From NCBI RefSeq assembly GCF_009834535.1, contig NC_045696.1, positions 10,232,001 through 10,296,000 of the forward strand: a DNA stretch of 64,000 nucleotides, read 5' to 3'. The translations under genes were made by a program, and so were the position numbers. The first letter of the stretch is position 1, and each line of letters opens with the position of its first letter. Shown in pieces: positions 22,601-46,258 of this stretch. Source of the stretch: Camelus ferus (lineage: Eukaryota). The notes under the pieces are model-generated. The model did not search any database and was not told the DNA's origin. It saw nothing but the letters and a program-made list of their open reading frames with translations.

Positions 22601-23650
22601 AATATAGATCATCAACAGTGACTGTAAGTTGGATTGGCTAGTTATATACAGCTTCACTGTATAGAATTTGCTCTTTTCAAATGCCACAGGTCAAAATAAA
22701 CAGTGAAAACATCACCTGTGAATAGCTCAGGTGGGGGAAAATACTATCAAAGTTTCTGATTTGGGTTCTGTTCACTTTTGACTTTATAAACAGGATTTAC
22801 TTGTAATATTAGAGGTATTTATTGGATGATGATATGGCCAACAAAGGGAACCTAACGGTGAAGAGCAGAGGTCTCTCTGACCTACACATCCCAGAACTGC
22901 AAGGAAAAGAACTGGGGAAGAAGTCCCATGTTGTAAGAGGGCATCAAGTATCTAGTCCAGTCCTTGGACAAATGTTTGGGCTTTGGAAACCAAGAGCAAG
23001 AGGTGATGACTAGTCTATGGTATCATTTAAAACTCCCACCCCCCTAGTAAGTCTCCACCCTCCCAGATCCCCCAAGCGTGATTTTGCACAACAAGTTAAA
23101 TAAAAGTAAACTGTTTATTAAAAGATACAGCAAAGGTACAGATACAGAGATACATACAAAGATACAGATATATATATATATTTACATATATATACAGTTT
23201 TGCTGTTTTCATGTGCACTATTATTTAGCAGCACATTATTTAATCAGGCGGCATTTTAATGGGGTTGTTTTGACACTTGATGTTATTACTGCGTCATTCT
23301 GACAAGATACAACTATAGCCTCCTGGAAATTTCAAGGTGTGAAATCCACTTCTCCAACTTTTAATAGTAGCAAAAAAGGAAGGAGAAGGGAAATGGAGTA
23401 CCAAGGCTGAGCATTAGGTTAAACACAAAAATTCAAAAGGGCCAAGGTAGCACAGGGAAGGGGAAATTATTAAAATTAGCGGCTATCTGACAAACAACCC
23501 AGAGAAATAGTAAGAAACCATTATTTAAGGGCAATGGGCTATGTATTCAAGATGCTCACATCAGCCTACAATGACCTTTTCCAATCCACTTCTTGTGTTG
23601 AACCTGAGGGTCTGCCTCTCTCTGCTCAATCCCTCCACCCAATACATTTG

Positions 23651-23905
23651 CTACCACCAAAATCTAGAGCTATAGAGCCTTGAAGCAAAACGAGAAGCTA
23701 AGTAGTTGTACCTTGGGCTACCTTCCCACAAGTGCAAGGAGGGCCCAATGTTGGGTAGGGATGTGATAACACTGTTCTCTGCAATTCGATGCTTTTCACT
23801 TTGTGGCTTGGTTCCACAAAGTGAATTGCATCGAGTTACTGTCAAATGAGAAGCTGCGGGTTGTTTCATCTGTCGTCTAACCCGGCCCTGCCGTTTAACC
23901 CGGCC
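23651..23905 (-). CDS. SON: SON alternative terminal exon (SON-B-like short isoform lacking G-patch and dsRBM)
   Basis: TTCTTAG acceptor 100 nt after exon 6; GRVKRQGRVRRQMKQPAASHLTVTRCNSLCGTKPQSEKHRIAENS...SRFWW then TAG; minus-strand AATAAA at 23114-23119. Confidence 0.8.
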   Translation of the reverse strand, partial: GRVKRQGRVRRQMKQPAASHLTVTRCNSLCGTKPQSEKHRIAENSVITSLPNIGPSLHLWEGSPRYNYLASRFASRLYSSRFWW

Positions 23906-24005
23906 CTAAGAAGAGTGAAACAGAATCCAAATCAGATATAAAGTAACAATAAAATGCAGATTTAGGTATAAAAAAGGAAAAATACATAATATTTCTCTTA
24001 CTTAC

Positions 24006-24194
24006 CTCAGAGGGCAAATTGCTGCTGAAAACATTATCGTCATCTTTGTTTTCTTCACCGTTTTTCTCTACAGGAACCCACTCTCCATAAACACTATCTG
24101 CTTCCTTTTTTCGATGTTGAGATCCAGATGACACAGGGAATTCTTTTGTTAATGTTACCTGGCTTTTTGGTGGAGTTGGCTTTGCCGCAGCAAT
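24006..24194 (-). CDS. SON: SON exon 6
   Basis: 189 nt, IAAAKPTPPKSQVTLTKEFPVSSGSQHRKKEADSVYGEWVPVEKNG...NLPSE. Confidence 0.92.
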
Positions 24195-24374
24195 CTAAAA
24201 AATAATGTTTTTCTTAATTAAAACTCAATATATTTCCAACATAATCTGAAAATGATTTTGTGCATTATTTCTCACAGTATTTAACCTAAATTAAAAATTA
24301 AAATCTATTTCAGTTTTACTTAAATAGTTCTACAAGTTGTGCTATTTCACCAGTCCATAAACACTAATACTCAC

Positions 24375-24521
24375 ATTCAGATTGAAAAAAATAGGTTTGG
24401 GTTCACTGAGTTTAAAGGGATGATGATAAAAAGGAGGTTCTTCTTCCTCTTCATCCGAAACATGAGGCTTATTCACTATTACATCATCATCTTCTTTACT
24501 CTGTGCGATTTGTTTGCATTT
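24375..24521 (-). CDS. SON: SON exon 5
   Basis: 147 nt, KCKQIAQSKEDDDVIVNKPHVSDEEEEEPPFYHHPFKLSEPKPIFFNLN. Confidence 0.92.
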
Positions 24522-24694
24522 CTTAAAAAGTAAACACAAATAAAACATAAACCTTACACTTTATGCAGAATAATATGTAATTTCTTAAAACCAAAACCAC
24601 GTAAAATCAACTTTCAAAAATAAAACAAGATTAATGATAGGTTACAGATAAGTAACTTAGCTTATGAGCTATTATTTAAACACAATCTAGTTGG

Positions 24695-24850
24695 TCAGTC
24701 AGTCAACAACATTTATTGAGCACCTACTATGTGCAGAGCACTGTACTGGGCACTGTCCAGGGAATACAAAAAAATAAAGTAAAAGACATGGTCCCTGCTC
24801 TCAAGGAGCTTACAATCTAGTTCAAGAGACGGAATACATACACATGGGAT
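24695..24850 (-). mobile_element. L2 3' end
   Basis: CAACATTTATTGAGCACCTACTATGTGCAGAGCACTG...GACATGGTCCCTGCTCTCAAGGAGCTTACAATCTAG. Confidence 0.75.
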
Positions 24851-26203
24851 AATTGAGGAACGCTTTTACAGAGCAACACAATTAACAAGTGCAAACTGAT
24901 ATAATACAAACTGAGTACATAAGTGCCGAAAGAACAAAAGCTTAAAAGAGAAAAGAATCAGGCAGAATTTGATAATTAAGGAATATTCCTGGAAGAGTCT
25001 GAAGCCAGATTTTCATAGTTAAGAACAAATATTAGTGGAGAAAGAAAAAGAAAGTCACCTTAGTCAGGTGGCAGTAAAGAGGTTAAAAGAAACTTATTAG
25101 AAGGGACAAGAGGGCTGAAGATGAGGCTAAAACATATAGGGAAACACTAAGTTTTCACAAGGTTTTGAATAAGGAGCTTGGATTTGATAAGCAAGCAATA
25201 GAAGCCTTCACTAGGTCCTTAAACTTAAAAAAAAAAAAGTTGTAATTCATATTGAAACACATCTAGTTGAGGAAACAGATTAAGAACTGTATAATCCCCA
25301 AATCTATGGCAAAATAAATTGTGAAACATTTGCAACTGGGTTAGATAGTAGCATGTCTCGCCATAAATGTTTTGTAGGTTGAGTCTCTAAAGGAACAGAA
25401 CTCAAGAATGGAAAATAAGGCATGGTGGAGAGGGTACAACTGATGAGGTCTGACATATAAAGCAAAGTCAATTCCTTCCTGAGAAGCAAAGGAACAGACT
25501 CAATTACCTGGCTTTATAAAAGGGTCAGAGTTCAATTTGGGTGGACTTGTCTCTCTATACAAGCAGTAGAACTTGTCACATCCCTTATCAATTGAAAATA
25601 TTATAGTAAGATAAAAAGCCCATTTAGCCAAAAACAGAGTATACCAAGCTTGTAACCAAGGGGAACAGAATATATTGACAGTGGCAGGCTGGCATAAGGC
25701 TAGCCAATAACAAGTTTCAATATCTGAAACAGTGTGGTATTTCTGGATCCTAGCAGCAATATTTCAGCGTCCTCCAAAAAAAAAAATTAATAAAACAAAA
25801 GCCAAAAGACAAAAAAAAGCCTCAATTGAAAAGATCAAATTCTTAAAAACAAAAATAAGTGTGTTTAAAATATATATGTTACTGCCAAAACCCGAACCGC
25901 AGGAAGAACTGATAATGGCCAGCCATTATCACCAATGGCTGGTACCAAACAGCCAAAACCCGAAATGTTGATGCGAAAGAAGTTCCTTTCAGGCAATGGC
26001 CAGCTATTCTCATTAATTTCCAAGCTCCGGTGGCAAAACATCATTTCTGAAGATTGTCTGTGTCTTTGCGTATATGCAGTACACTCGTGGCGATCAGTGA
26101 ACTCGTCGTGAATGGGAACGAAACTGTAGGCGAGCTTCTGCGTGTTGCTCACTCAACCTCCTCCATTCAAACGAACCGTCCCACTCCTCAGTCAGTTTGG
26201 CTT

Positions 26204-26209
26204 CTAAAA
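26204..26209 (-). CDS. SON: SON alternative exon 5a coding part (Phe-stop; SON-E-like truncated isoform)
   Basis: Strong acceptor TTACTTCCCATTACTTTTGCTTTCCAG followed by TTT TAG, in frame after exon 4 (...IEELTE-F-stop). Confidence 0.65.
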   Translation of the reverse strand, partial: F

Positions 26210-26438
26210 CTGGAAAGCAAAAGTAATGGGAAGTAACTTTTAGCTAGCGGAGCTTAGCCATCCCGGATAATGGCCTGCTAAACAGAGCTTCTGCTGCTGC
26301 CACGTCTGTATTTCGGGTTTTGGCCACTCGGTGCCAGCCATTATCAGTTCAGCCCACAATTCGGGTTTTGGCACGCTCCAGAGTCAACATCACTGGAATA
26401 ATCCATTAAAGAATGAAAACAAATTCTGTCTAGCTTAC

Positions 26439-26599
26439 CTCAGTTAGTTCTTCTATAGTAGCTCCTCCTGACTTTTTAGCAACTTTCTCTTCTATGGTAG
26501 GTGGAGGTGCAGGTTTTAGGTTTGGCGGTAAAGGAACACCAGCCTTAGCACACATGGCAGCTGCATTAGCTTTGGCTATTTCAAGTAACTGAGCCTTAT
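26439..26599 (-). CDS. SON: SON exon 4
   Basis: 161 nt, KAQLLEIAKANAAAMCAKAGVPLPPNLKPAPPPTIEEKVAKKSGGATIEELTE; TTTTGCAG/GTAAG. Confidence 0.93.
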
Positions 26600-26767
26600 C
26601 TGCAAAAGGAAAATATAAGAAGCAATTTTCCTAAAAGACTGTACATGTTGTATTATCTAAGTTTTATATGCTAACAGAATTAAAGGCATCAATTTCCTGC
26701 CCTAAGCTGTCATTAATTCACTCTTTGGTTCAAGGTTTTTAAGCAAATGCCCTCTAAAAAACTGGCA

Positions 26768-26910
26768 GGGAGGGTATAGCTCTCGTGTAGAGTGCATGCT
26801 TAGCATGCAGGAGGTCCTGGGTTCAATCCCCAGTACCTCTGTTAAATAAATAAACCTAATCCCCCCCAACAAAGGAATAAAAAAAATTAATAATAAATAA
26901 ATAAATAAAA
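26768..26910 (+). mobile_element. tRNA-derived SINE (Vic-1-like)
   Basis: GGGAGGGTATAGCTC...AGAGTGCATGCTTAGCATGCAGGAGGTCCTGGGTTCAATCCCCAGTACCTC with (TAAA)n tail. Confidence 0.85.
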
Positions 26911-28103
26911 AGAGTTAAGTCCACATTAACCTTTCCATTCAAACACTATACAAAACAGCTAAAACTATACAACTACAGTGATCACCCTGCCACACACTCT
27001 AAGATACACACTTGCCAAAGTTTACTTTATTTTCCAAAACTATCACACCCTTAAATTACTTTCCTTTGAACCTCTGACATTTTAAATCACTCTTTGAGAC
27101 CAAATTCAAAACTGCCACTTCTTCAAAGTAGTAAGTCTTAAATCAGAATTTAACCTTCCTCTCCACTGTGCTCCTACAGTACCTAATCTATACCAGTAAT
27201 TAACAGCAATCATCACATTCTTCTCTTTTTGGCAATTTCACTATTTGGTAAAAGAGACATGTGCATTATCTTTCTCCTCTACTAAGTTTTAATCACTCCA
27301 AGAACTACATACTGTTCCTCTGCTTTTAATTAAAAAAGAACTCAGACACTATCTGTTGAACTGAACACATTCTCCCTTATTTTCTGTTAGGGTCTTTTTC
27401 TTTAGACAACCCTGACCTGGAAATGTCCAATCCACACAGATAATGATACATTACCCATTATTCTTACAGGTAGTCATGCATAATCCATCAAGTTTTAGTC
27501 ATCTCTCCACACTTTTTTAAAACTAGGGGAAATTAGAGCACTTCATTTAAACTAAAGCAGATTATTAAAATTACTTTAATAAATTTTACTTCATTTCCTA
27601 TTATCACATCCACCCAGGTAAATAACTCCCAACATGCAAAATTTCCTACTCACTTCCATTACCCATTACACCAAGCAGAATTATCTTCACAAACACTTAA
27701 CAGTCCTGTATTGCCATTTTAAGACATGTATTTTACAAAAAAGAAACACTTAGTTTTAGGCTTATTTGCAACAATACTATGTTGGAGTACATATAACAAA
27801 AATCTGAGCAGATAACTAGCCTTGTCTTTAACTGGACTTCCACTTGCCATTTTTAGTTATGGAACATGGTTCAGGCAAAATGAAACACATATGGAAATAC
27901 CTTGGTTCTAATATACTCCAATGCAGATCTTTTTAACTCTAATTACAAATGTATTCATTCCTACATTTTCTAAACACAAGCTAATCATAAAAATTTAAAG
28001 ATAAAAATGTTTATCTTAAACCAATAAACCCAAGTATTCCATTTGACTAAAAACAACAAAAAACCCAGATTCCCTAATACCATTAAATTTTAAAATGACT
28101 CAC

Positions 28104-31100
28104 TCAAATCCGTCAGACGTTTAGGTGATCTGCCTCTTTCAGAAGACCTGGATCGTTTACGACGGATGGGAGATCTGCTAAACCTTCTTCTCAAAGGTGT
28201 TCGTGATCGCCTTAATCTGACTGGTGATATACTGAAGCTTCGTCTTCTTGCCACAGACCTTGATCTCCTCCGACGGCTAGGCGTACGACTCCGTCGGCTT
28301 GGGGTCCGGCTCCGTCGACTTGGGGTGCGGCTCCTTCGGCTCGGGGTGCGGCTCCGTCTGCTGGGGGTGCGGCTCCTTCGGCTCGGGGTGCGGCTCCGTC
28401 GGCTCGGGGTGCGGCTCCGTCGGCTCGGGGAAATGCTAAAGCTCCTTCTCCCTGCAGATCTAGATCTTCTTCGACGACTAGGAGTGTGACTCCGGCTCCG
28501 ACGACTTGGGGTGCGACTTCGAGCTCTACCTGTTTTCCGGTTATCCCTGGAGCTTGATCTTTTCCTTTTTCTTTCCCTGGACTTGGATCTGTGCTTTGGA
28601 GATCTTTTGCGCTTCTCTTTTGATACAGATCGCCTTCCTCTAGACTTTGATCTTGACCTGCTGCTCCTCCTCCTGCGTCTTGATCGTGACCGTGAACGTG
28701 TCTGAGAGCGATGAGACTTTGACTTAGATGATCTCTTCCTTGCCCTGGAACGAGATTCACTGGTGCGCTTTCGTGATTTGTGTTCAGAAGACTTGGAACG
28801 CTTACTTCGAGATCTTAACGAAGAGTCTCTTTTCTTCTCTTTCTCACCTTTGTCACGGTTCTTATTTTTCTTGCTTTTTTCATGTGTGTCCTTAACTTTC
28901 ACAAAAATTTCATAATCATCTTTCTCCTCTGAAGAAGACTCTGAAGCTCTTTCTGGTATACTAATAACCACCGGACTGGTAGCAGATTTATCCCGTTCAA
29001 CTTCACTCGCAAGTGAAGATCCTTCAATACCAGCTCTAAGACTTGTAAGACGTTCCATGTCCTTAGGAAGTAATGGTCTCACTAAATCTGCTTCATTAAT
29101 ATCATCAATATTGGCAGAAAATCCCGACTCAGGCAACATCTCTTTAGGAGGGAGAGATAATTCTTTATCTTCTCCACTACTTTCTTTAGAACTGAGAGCA
29201 ACTGCTAATGTCTGGTCACTCTCTTGTATAGGGAATGGTCCTTCTGCATCCTTACTAATAAAGTTATTATTAGATGGTAAATCAAGATGAATGTCTTTAG
29301 CAGGCAAAGGTCCCTCTATGTCAGCTTCACTACCACCACTGGGGCTGGTGGAAATTACCATGTCATGTTCAGTATCTTGAGTAGTTAAAGGTACTTCAAT
29401 ATCATATTTACTAACTGAACTGAGAGCAGATGCTGTGGCAAATTCAAAACCCTTACCAGTTCCCATGGCATCAGGTTCAAGAGCAAGGGGACCAGGGGAA
29501 GACAGAGTTCCTCCTACATCAGCTTCACTAACACTAGGGCAGGTATCCAATACTGTGCATTGTTCAGTCTCGTTGGTGGGCACAACTTTCTCTTCACCAA
29601 TTTCACCAACAGCACCAGTGCTGACAGCAGACACTGTATTATGGTCCATCTCTTTAACAATTAAGTGATTATTTATATTAAGATCAATATTTATACCATT
29701 TTCAGTTTCATAGGAGTCATTTTTCAGGTGTCCTTCAGCATGTGGCTCTTCATCCGAATGCATGGGAATCTCCTGCATGCCAGTCTCTGGAGCAAGATTT
29801 TCATCACCAGATAGTAAATTCATTCTTTTTATAACACTAGATTCCAGTGTTATTGGCGTAGACTCTAAAACCATGTCAGTAGGTATTACCTGAGTCTGCT
29901 CTGAGATGGTGACAGCAGGCTCTGAAATTGTCACAGTGGATTCTTGAACAGAAATAGATGGTTCTGAAACAATCATGTTAGGCTGAAGGACTGACACCAC
30001 TGGTTCCAGGACTGGTACAGCAGGCTCCAGGGCAGAAACAACTGGCACAGGAATGGTAACATGCTCTGGCTCAGACAATGCCAAGGGCTCTGGGACAGCC
30101 TCGGCCAGTGGGTCCTGGATAGCCTCCACTGGTGGGTCTTGGACGGCCACAGCCGGTGGCTCTGGGACAGCCACGGCCGGTGGCTCTGGGGCAGCCACGG
30201 CCGGTGGTGCTGGGGCAGCCACAGCTGGTGGCGCTGGGACAGCCACGGCTGGTGGCTCTGGGACAGCTACAGCTGGCGGCTCTGAGACTGCCATGGCTGG
30301 CAGCTCTAGAGTACTCTGGGATGGCTCTGGGATAGGTACTGCTGGTTCCAGCAGAGACATAGATACCTCTGAGGCAACACGTCCTGAAGCTCTCATGCAA
30401 TCGTAAGTTTCTGCCATCTCTGACATAACAGAAGGCTCTGATGTTAACACAGCTGGTTCAGCTGACATTATGGGAATTTCAGACACCACGTAACTCACTG
30501 GTCTCTCTGGAACGATTTCATGCTCCTCTGCTACGGCAGCAGACTCTACCGGTGTGGAAGTAACCGAAGGCTCTGGCTCTAGTGGTGGTTCTGGAACAGT
30601 CACAACAGCCTCTGACGCTAACACTGAAGGCTCAGATGCCGACACTGAATAATTAGCGGGCACTGCCGAAGGCTCTGAAATCTCACTCTGACTCACAGGA
30701 GGTTCAGGCAGCGATACAGACTCTTCAGGAGGTAATGCTGGCACCTCGGTAGGCCAAGTATTTTCAGCTGTTAATGCTGACTGCTCTGTGGATAATGCTG
30801 GACCCTCTGGTGGTTCCTCAGGAGGCAATGGTGGTGTCATTGGTGGCTCTTCAGGTGGCAATGGTGGCATTGTTGGAGGCTCTTCAGGAGGCAAAGGTGG
30901 CACCATATATGCCTCCGTGTATGTATCAGTGTAAGAATCGGTGTAAGAATCAGCTGCCATAGACATCATTGAACGATCAGCAGTGTAAGATGACATCATA
31001 GATCGGTCAGCTGCAGAGTACGATGACATCATAGACCGGTCAGCAGCAGAGTATGACGACATCATAGACCGGTCAGCACCCATGGACATCATAGATCGGT

Positions 31101-45220: not shown

Positions 45221-46258
45221 GTAAGTAGAAGACTGCCTGTGAAGGGCAGTTGTCTTGTTATGATATATGAATATACTATATATTATAGTAAGTATATGGT
45301 ATTATATATTATATGTCATATATAATATAGTATATTTACTTATAATATACTAAGTAATATATATATTATACTAAGGCAATTCTAGGGAAAAACTCATACT
45401 ATGTAAATTGCCTTTTTCCCAACATCAAAATAAAATGGAATTCTATGCATATAAAGGTATACAATCTTGTGGCCTTGCAGAAAGATACATTTTTTAATAT
45501 TTATTACTGAATAGTTTCTAGAGGAAAAAATACATTTGGTTCTATAGTCATGTATTCTTAGCCAAATTGACGCAGTGGCATCTTAAAACATAAAGGATAT
45601 TGATATTTTCATAAATAATTAACTAAAGTGAGGAGTCATCACTTGGCCTTCTGCCACCACTATTCAATTCTAAATCATAAATTAAACATCCTGTTCTCTA
45701 TTATATGGAAAACATTGAGCAATAAAAATATTGGTAGATATATACCTTTGGCCCCTTTTTTGTTGACACTTCTTACTTGGTATGTTTTCCTTTTAGTTAG
45801 GTCAGTTTCATTCTTAATTGTTCTTTATTCTACATTGAATTTTATTATTTCCTAGTAGCCAAACACCTTAAAAGTAACAATTTTGTTACTTACTTCAGTT
45901 AATGATCTGTGTGCCCATGTTTATATGGGTCTTATACAGCACATCTTCTTGAAGGAGAGTATGATTCACAGCTTTATATCTTAAAGATCACGCCATATCC
46001 ATACTAAACAACTGCTTTTTTCCCCCAAAGATTTTACTTATATGATCTCATGATAAGTGAGAAAAGCAAAAGTGTACCACATGGTGATAACTATAAAAGA
46101 ATACATAAGGGAAAAATCCTGGCAGGAAGTACATCAAAATGGTGTTAGCAGTTTTTTTCTTTCTGCTTATCAGTTGTTGCTATAGCATATCCAAAGCATT
46201 TTAAACTTTTGAATCATAAGAATTTATTGGATGTTGAAAATTACTCTTGTCTTCACAG

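Follow-up and report, generated by a model that had tools for sequence, protein, structure and literature searches.

A hairpin in SON intron 4 is very probably the orthologue of the vertebrate-conserved SON double-stranded RNA

Introduction

SON organises nuclear speckles, and its loss of function leads to ZTTK syndrome. In a 64-kb window of the Camelus ferus genome (contig NC_045696.1, positions 10,232,001 to 10,296,000; positions below count from its first letter), intron 4 of SON contains an inverted-repeat element at 26373-25883, and the question that this locus raises is what the repeat is and what it might do. The original prediction, made from the letters of the window, proposed nested complementary arms that enclose a truncating alternative exon and set the ratio of full-length to truncated SON. 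We find that the element is very probably the orthologue, in this mammal, of a vertebrate-conserved double-stranded RNA (dsRNA) of SON pre-mRNA, described as a "conserved dsRNA in SON" in human in January 2025 (bioRxiv 10.1101/2025.01.24.634786); both the element and the hypothesis of an autoregulatory switch are already known from that preprint. Beyond the passages of the preprint, our analysis adds an excess of G-U pairs on the sense strand, the retention of CpG dinucleotides, a competing insert in the 3' arm, and about 230 nt of conserved flank.

A long-range hairpin in intron 4

SON lies on the minus strand of the window, where its giant exon shows the typical MDSQMLA and RS repeats. Intron 4 spans 26438-24522, and the 5' arm of the hairpin begins 65 nt past the exon 4 donor, the spacing originally predicted. 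All four quoted complementary pairs are present in the window: TGCCAAAACCCGAA (25883-25896 with 26360-26373), GAACTGATAATGGC (25906-25919 with 26337-26350), GCCAAAACCCGAAAT (25952-25966 with 26310-26324), and the inner AAGCTCCG (26022-26029 with 26248-26255), whose 8 bp turn out to be part of a 10-bp helix in the minimum-energy fold. An inverted-repeat search (seed 12, at least 28 nt, at most 600 nt apart) merged the nested pairs into arms 37 nt long at 84% complementarity and 33 nt long at 85%. In the whole 64 kb only three inverted pairs passed this filter: two that belong to this element, and an AT-rich near-palindrome at 45259-45347 with 38-nt arms, 74% complementary and 13 nt apart.

Folding the reverse complement of 25850-26440, as the original prediction had suggested, gave -216.7 kcal/mol for the sense RNA versus -166.1 ± 7.4 kcal/mol for shuffled sequences (z = -6.8), and none of 100 shuffles equalled it. 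The antisense strand of the element region folded at -196.1 kcal/mol (z = -6.65). In the sense transcript, two intron 4 arms of about 64 and 84 nt pair with each other; the minimum-energy fold resolves them into three helices of 21, 15 and 23 bp, including G-U pairs, around a loop of about 340 nt, with weaker inner helices besides.

The arms are also internally repetitive. The word GCCAAAACCCGAA is present four times, twice per arm, and with up to two mismatches it has 4 matches in the 64 kb versus 1.21 expected, a number that 3 of 100 shuffles reach. Helices 1 and 3 are built from the same 13-nt word, so register-shifted pairings are possible. The 3' arm alone carries an extra segment, which duplicates the helix 2 strand of the 5' arm: GCCAGCCATTATCA is found at both 25918-25931 and 26333-26346. 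This segment has a local fold of -15.8 kcal/mol, and together with the helix 2 partner it forms a palindrome able to compete with that helix.

Identity with the human SON dsRNA

The human element, labelled dsRNA_chr21_1350 in the legend of Figure S4 and dsRNA_chr21_281376 in the drawing of Figure S5, has all its helices conserved in 176 vertebrate species, with one base pair covarying significantly under R-scape, according to the passages of the preprint that describe it (bioRxiv 10.1101/2025.01.24.634786). Three adenosines of helix 1 are reported there as edited from adenosine to inosine (A-to-I) in brain, the strongest at chr21:33557388, in the non-repetitive class. The Figure S5 consensus gives UGCCAAAACCCGAAYYGYRGG for helix 1 (21 pairs), GAACUGAUAAUGGCU for helix 2 (15 pairs), AUUUCGGGUUUUGGCYRYUYGGU for a strand of helix 3, and YAACAUAUAU for the 3' flank.

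The window has the letters of this figure in helices 1 and 2, in the 3' strand of helix 3 and in the flank 3' of the element. The AAAA run of helix 1 at 26369-26366 corresponds to adenosines marked as edited in the human consensus, and the positions that are G-U in the window are Y-R in the consensus, so that they vary in a way compatible with pairing. As in the published description, the element lies in a SON intron after the small exon that follows the giant exon. The two elements thus share gene, intron position, three helices and letters, including the lengths of helices 1 and 2, along with a long loop, a non-repetitive sequence and a span of about 490-500 nt; the 3' arm falls in the 3' untranslated region (3'UTR) of a short isoform without the dsRBD in human, and in a candidate exon in the window. 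They differ in species and in a few lineage-specific changes in the window, for example TGG for an arginine codon. It is because the window letters and helix lengths match Figure S5 that we identify the two as orthologues.

Orthologous copies in other sources

We read conservation from translated pseudo-open reading frames (ORFs) called on public contigs in a protein collection, using as query the minus-strand stop-to-stop frame 25868-26152, which contains the 3' arm and half of the loop. The search returned 16 clusters (at the 90% identity level) that are 84-96% identical to the window, and one more at 55% owing to frameshifts. With cluster members included, at least 44 distinct sequences start with xSNTQKLA. 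Thirty-six of the 44 are colinear over the 92 residues of the element with 1-9 differences, and the other eight are frameshifted or carry a deletion, which argues that the stretch is non-coding. One foreign sequence equals the window except at its first residue, and two of them occur on 512 and 415 contigs. The extra segment of the 3' arm is kept in the foreign peptides as ..PAIGDNG(R/Q/W)PLSV..; an arginine in 36 of the other sequences is replaced by the TGG codon of the window, which breaks the centre of the local palindrome.

The foreign sequences run on into the U-rich flank of the window (..AVTYILNTLIFVFKNLIFSIEAFF..) and are colinear as far as 25703-25653. Since they share this flank, they come from the orthologous locus of other organisms and are not copies scattered elsewhere. 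P0026 departs from the window at 5 of the 92 residues inside the element, whereas its flank (residues 94-171 onto 25871-25653, by tblastn) is 79.5% identical; hairpin and loop are therefore more constrained than the sequence that follows. P0040, P0041, P0044 and P0002 align as far as 25703. Overall, read-through peptides of the orthologous copies are about 95% identical to the window versus about 80% in the flank, a difference, read from translated frames, that supports purifying selection on the element, as the original prediction had supposed. On the 5' side, a second search found one foreign ORF, P0018, 93% identical over 26380-26243.

None of the six ORFs across the element matched Pfam at E up to 1, and searching the exon 4 peptide against metagenome contigs gave 598 pattern matches, of which none was confirmed. 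Clustered at 90% together with the 51-residue P0018 is an S9 peptidase of Flavobacterium with 709 residues, which looks like a clustering artefact.

A single-copy sequence

Inverted termini, short internal repeats and a hairpin-forming transcript are also marks of short DNA transposons, and a non-autonomous insertion resembling a miniature inverted-repeat transposable element (MITE), either recent and neutral or ancient and then co-opted, would account for several features of the element: its perfect 14-bp terminal inverted repeats, the doubled 13-nt motif in each arm, several short subterminal repeats, and the sharp step in GC and CpG content at its ends. MITEs are expected in multiple dispersed copies. 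A DNA search of the 2.09-Gb genome of the organism itself with the whole element or the loop alone returned one candidate each, the element itself, although the same search with a control short interspersed element (SINE; 26760-26900) returned 1805 candidates, with scored matches down to 80% identity. The terminal 14-mer has seven exact matches in the genome, and the five outside the locus share nothing further with the element. A 26-base two-block pattern with up to three mismatches matched only the two arms (control, 0), and a CpG-degenerate version of the 14-mer (149 matches versus 23 in the control) was uninformative, as the reversed control keeps the CpG.

Nor is a target-site duplication present: there is no direct repeat of 2-9 nt at the ends, where the left flank ends ..TATGTTAC and the right flank begins CGCTCCAG.. 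The element is constrained and occupies the same locus in many other sources, and the editing sites of its human orthologue are classed as non-repetitive in the preprint passages (bioRxiv 10.1101/2025.01.24.634786), like the element itself, a genome singleton with the positive control working. With a single copy in the genome, no duplication at its ends and orthologous copies elsewhere, a transposon is thus a most improbable explanation. The orthologous copies rule out a recent insertion, and an ancient mobile-element origin, though conceivable, would not compete with a present function. The original prediction had recognised no repeat here and had staked itself on conserved arms and on the element not being a transposon; the orthologues are conserved and the genome holds no other copy.

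Foreign or contaminant DNA was considered as a source and rejected, as blastn found no match in plasmids or phages. Neither the arm pattern nor a loop 21-mer had an exact match in viral contigs or in bacterial and archaeal genome contigs, and the arm pattern had no match in JGI metagenome contigs. No Rfam covariance model matched 25883-26373 at E up to 1, and over 23000-29000 only a tRNA-like SINE and a sub-threshold long non-coding RNA model were matched.

Strand bias and CpG retention

To compare the arms, the left arm was aligned with the reverse complement of the right. Eight of the 10 mismatches in the core arms are transitions, and all eight give G-U on the minus (SON) strand and C-A on the plus strand. 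Across the whole arm alignment (35 mismatches), G-U pairs number 15 on the minus strand versus 4 on the plus strand, and the sense arm duplex exceeds the antisense one in stability by about 15 kcal/mol (-97.3 versus -82.5 kcal/mol). The excess of G-U pairs and the stability of the duplex suggest that constraint may act on the RNA of the SON strand. When the foreign peptide variants were mapped back to single-base changes, from one arm only, the sole strong-arm substitution common to several sequences was C to U at 25902 (6 sequences), where the pair would be kept as G-U.

The element retains 21 CpGs in 491 nt, close to the 20 originally estimated, with an observed/expected ratio of 0.74 at a GC content of 48%, versus 0.15 and 34% in the rest of intron 4; the figures for intron 3 are 0.03 and 33%. 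Conservation at the level of DNA, through an intragenic enhancer, a small unmethylated CpG island or clustered factor sites, would make the hairpin incidental, and would fit a CpG ratio that exceeds even the 0.12 of 26400-26599, the neighbouring coding exon. It would also fit short motifs repeated in either orientation (four copies of GCCAAAACCCGAA, and the (G)ATAATGGC family) and a loop as conserved as the arms. A DNA site, however, has no need of transitions that all pair as G-U only in the transcribed sense strand, and the editing of helix 1 in human brain shows that an RNA duplex is formed, one pair of which covaries significantly (preprint passages; bioRxiv 10.1101/2025.01.24.634786). We therefore consider a purely DNA-level explanation very improbable, and prefer constraint on the RNA.

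A candidate exon enclosed by the hairpin

The original prediction placed a strong acceptor followed by a stop codon in the loop, and both are there: the 20 nt before AG 26211-26210 are 85% pyrimidines, and exon 4 joined at this AG would read on in frame into TTT TAG (26209-26204). Intron 4 has only two other AGs with an equal score, and none other upstream of 25772 reaches the 0.8 threshold. As predicted from the letters of the window, the 3' arm lies inside the resulting candidate last exon. The only AATAAA in intron 4 is at 24717, in a stretch (24700-24860, minus strand) that resembles a MIR-type SINE core; between the acceptor and that signal there are only the variants AATATA (25676) and TATAAA (25518).

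Two alternative exons of SON, E5a and E7a, are named in PMC8455679 along with its short isoforms, SON E and SON B, and the predicted exon is likely this E5a. The preprint mentions a human short isoform without the dsRBD, and in its Figure S4 legend part of the dsRNA is covered by the 3'UTR of one RefSeq isoform (bioRxiv 10.1101/2025.01.24.634786). The U-rich stretch 25653-25882 (minus strand) could be the rest of the short-isoform 3'UTR or the TIA1/KHSRP site reported in human.

A good acceptor with an immediate in-frame stop could also belong to a poison cassette exon between exons 4 and 5 that triggers nonsense-mediated decay, in place of a terminal exon. SON is an SR-like splicing factor, and exons of this kind typically show strong conservation of non-coding sequence (PMC11357089 and PMC12632421, each in part). 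The sole consensus-like downstream GT found by eye, however, is a weak GAG|GTTGAG about 50 nt past the acceptor, and other sources appear to have GTTGAA there, judging by their ATG start. The preprint, moreover, calls the overlap a RefSeq isoform 3'UTR (bioRxiv 10.1101/2025.01.24.634786), we found no paper naming a SON poison exon, and SON is absent from one supplementary file of PMC11632617. A cassette exon therefore seems extremely doubtful, and we continue with the terminal exon, whose features are given in Table 1.

Table 1. Coordinates of the hairpin and of the surrounding SON features (Figure S5 is that of bioRxiv 10.1101/2025.01.24.634786)
Feature	Position	Strand	Details
SON giant exon	34101-28097	-	open frame 34101-28090, 2003 codons
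SON exon 4	26439..26599	-	161 nt; last 53 codons KAQLLEIAKANAAAMCAKAGVPLPPNLKPAPPPTIEEKVAKKSGGATIEELTE; donor GT 26438-26437
Helix 1, 5' strand	26353..26373	-	UGCCAAAACCCGAAUUGUGGG; 21 bp, 4 G-U in minimum-energy fold
Helix 2, 5' strand	26336..26350	-	GAACUGAUAAUGGCU; 15 bp, 1 G-U; same letters as Figure S5 helix 2
Helix 3, 5' strand	26310..26332	-	ACCGAGUGGCCAAAACCCGAAAU; 23 bp, 4 G-U; arm covered by P0018, one other source, 93% identity
Inner 10-bp helix, 5' strand	26248..26257	-	pairs with 26020-26029; minimum-energy fold
Candidate alternative 3' splice site in loop	26204..26234	-	pyrimidine tract, AG 26211-26210, TTT TAG 26209-26204
Inner 10-bp helix, 3' strand	26020..26029	-	includes the originally predicted 8-bp pair
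Helix 3, 3' strand	25944..25966	-	AUUUCGGGUUUUGGCUGUUUGGU; identical letters in Figure S5 helix 3
Extra segment, 3' arm only	25910..25943	-	repeats helix 2 strand of the 5' arm; local palindrome TGATAATGGC/GCCATTATCA
Helix 2, 3' strand	25906..25920	-	GGCCAUUAUCAGUUC
Helix 1, 3' strand	25883..25903	-	CCUGCGGUUCGGGUUUUGGCA; kept in read-through peptides as ..LPAVRVLAV..
U-rich flank 3' of hairpin	25653..25882	-	colinear with other sources over at least 230 nt, less conserved than hairpin
SON exon 5	24375..24521	-	encodes KCKQIAQ...; constitutive partner of exon 4 donor

Possible roles of the duplex

Once the 3' arm has been transcribed, the duplex would loop out the alternative acceptor and draw the exon 4 donor towards the downstream intron, favouring the splicing of exon 4 to exon 5 and hence full-length SON. 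Opening or occupying the duplex would then yield more truncated SON, without the G-patch and dsRBM. Candidates for such opening are A-to-I editing in helix 1, dsRNA-binding proteins including SON, slow folding, and the competing palindrome of the 3' arm. That the duplex sets the ratio of long to short SON and is read by SON's own dsRBM is a hypothesis that coincides with the proposal of the preprint authors, according to whom the duplex is bound by full-length SON or by other proteins, which thereby influence how the short isoform is spliced (passages of bioRxiv 10.1101/2025.01.24.634786). Short SON isoforms without G-patch and dsRBM reportedly account for most of the rise of SON in leukaemia (PMC8455679, in part, citing Kim 2016), and a conserved, edited duplex around the short-isoform splice site is a plausible control point for the isoform ratio. 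The direction given here, with the duplex favouring the join of exon 4 to exon 5 and full-length SON, is possible and offered tentatively.

A more specific version, which we hold to be unlikely, would make the hairpin a bistable co-transcriptional switch, in which long-range pairing and local pairing of the 3' arm compete, tuned by helix 1 editing and by the SON dsRBM, to set the amount of truncated SON. The palindrome GAUAAUGGCCGGCCAUUAUC would be perfect in the 36 arginine-reading sequences if their codon is CGG, which peptides cannot tell from AGG. If true, SON would feed back on itself through RNA structure, where other SR proteins have loops based on poison exons.

As the main alternative, the duplex may be functional as RNA without switching any splice site, as a platform for docking or editing (ADAR, ILF3/ZFR, STAU, TIA1/KHSRP) that serves nuclear retention, 3'-end formation or decay of those SON transcripts in which intron 4 is kept, or as a self mark for dsRNA sensors. 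The human element fits this, with editing in helix 1 and overlapping TIA1 and KHSRP signals in enhanced crosslinking and immunoprecipitation (eCLIP), as the passages of the preprint report (bioRxiv 10.1101/2025.01.24.634786); so do the conserved U-rich tract directly after the 3' arm and the lack of a canonical poly(A) signal in or just past the element. Runs labelled as RNA from a close relative contain 0.83-0.86 of the words of 25500-26700, which places intron 4 sequence in RNA samples. The 5' arm, however, is spliced out of the mature short isoform, so that such a duplex could act only before or instead of splicing, and an acceptor enclosed 65 nt from the donor is the classic layout of a splicing regulator. 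On balance, we regard a role without a splice-site switch as rather unlikely, and return to a duplex that influences the choice of acceptor.

Several observations weigh against this splicing role or against the evidence for pairing on which it is built. The direction of the switch is a guess, and the acceptor is followed by neither AATAAA nor ATTAAA before 24717. Transcription-linked mutation bias is expected to produce part of the G-U excess. Several singleton substitutions in the foreign sequences would break pairs if the partner base is unchanged. The comparative cover consists of translated frames over 25868-26152 from many sources and over 26243-26383 from one, and a search with the plus-strand ORF 26051-26233 found nothing for the acceptor-bearing centre of the loop (26152-26243); a representative search for the loop centre gave two weak matches to long multi-stretch proteins, which we took as spurious. 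Finally, the primary sequence of the loop is as conserved as the arms, so pairing cannot be the sole constraint.

Comparison with other structured pre-mRNAs

Known ADAR substrates made of an exon and its intronic complement include the GRIA2 Q/R site and ADARB1, whose self-editing creates a 3' splice site. The SON element resembles them as a conserved intramolecular pre-mRNA duplex that is edited before splicing and can couple editing to splice choice, whereas the reported SON sites are intronic, in helix 1, and non-recoding. The recoding site R571G in the giant exon of SON is a separate event (PMC8659423, in part).

Another likeness is to long-range intronic structures such as R1-R5 of ATE1 and the pairs of conserved complementary regions (PCCRs) of BRD2 and BRD3, in which such regions loop out or expose an alternative exon and competing pairings occur (PMC7797038, PMC10789245 and PMC8052449, each in part). 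By contrast, the SON element has one arm inside the regulated exon and far longer arms (59 bp in three helices). The original prediction had suggested looking for the duplex in catalogues of this kind. The PCCR paper (PMC8052449) does not mention SON in its main text or in five of its supplementary files, and its catalogue excludes alternative exons by design. SON was also not found in the DZF preprint.

Minor observations

Elsewhere in the window, plus-strand frames at 51-63 kb are GART-like, judged by their peptide motifs. The control SINE lies in SON intron 3 and is tRNA-derived (26770-26841, plus strand, within a wider 26760-26900; Rfam tRNA, 34.4 bits); its sequence resembles the camelid tRNA-SINE. 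Forty of its 1805 first-look genome candidates were scored, with identities of 80-94%. The Rfam model SMAD5-AS1_2 weakly matches 23287-23415 (minus strand; 24 bits versus a gathering threshold of 50, E 0.014), probably by chance or through a shared repeat.

As leads only, sequencing runs contained 0.91 of the words of 25500-26700 for one organism (a single run of 1 million letters holds 0.91) and 0.87 for a second. Four RNA runs with a pig gut metagenome label, drawn from three studies, each contained 0.41 of these words and two further runs 0.36, again as leads only.

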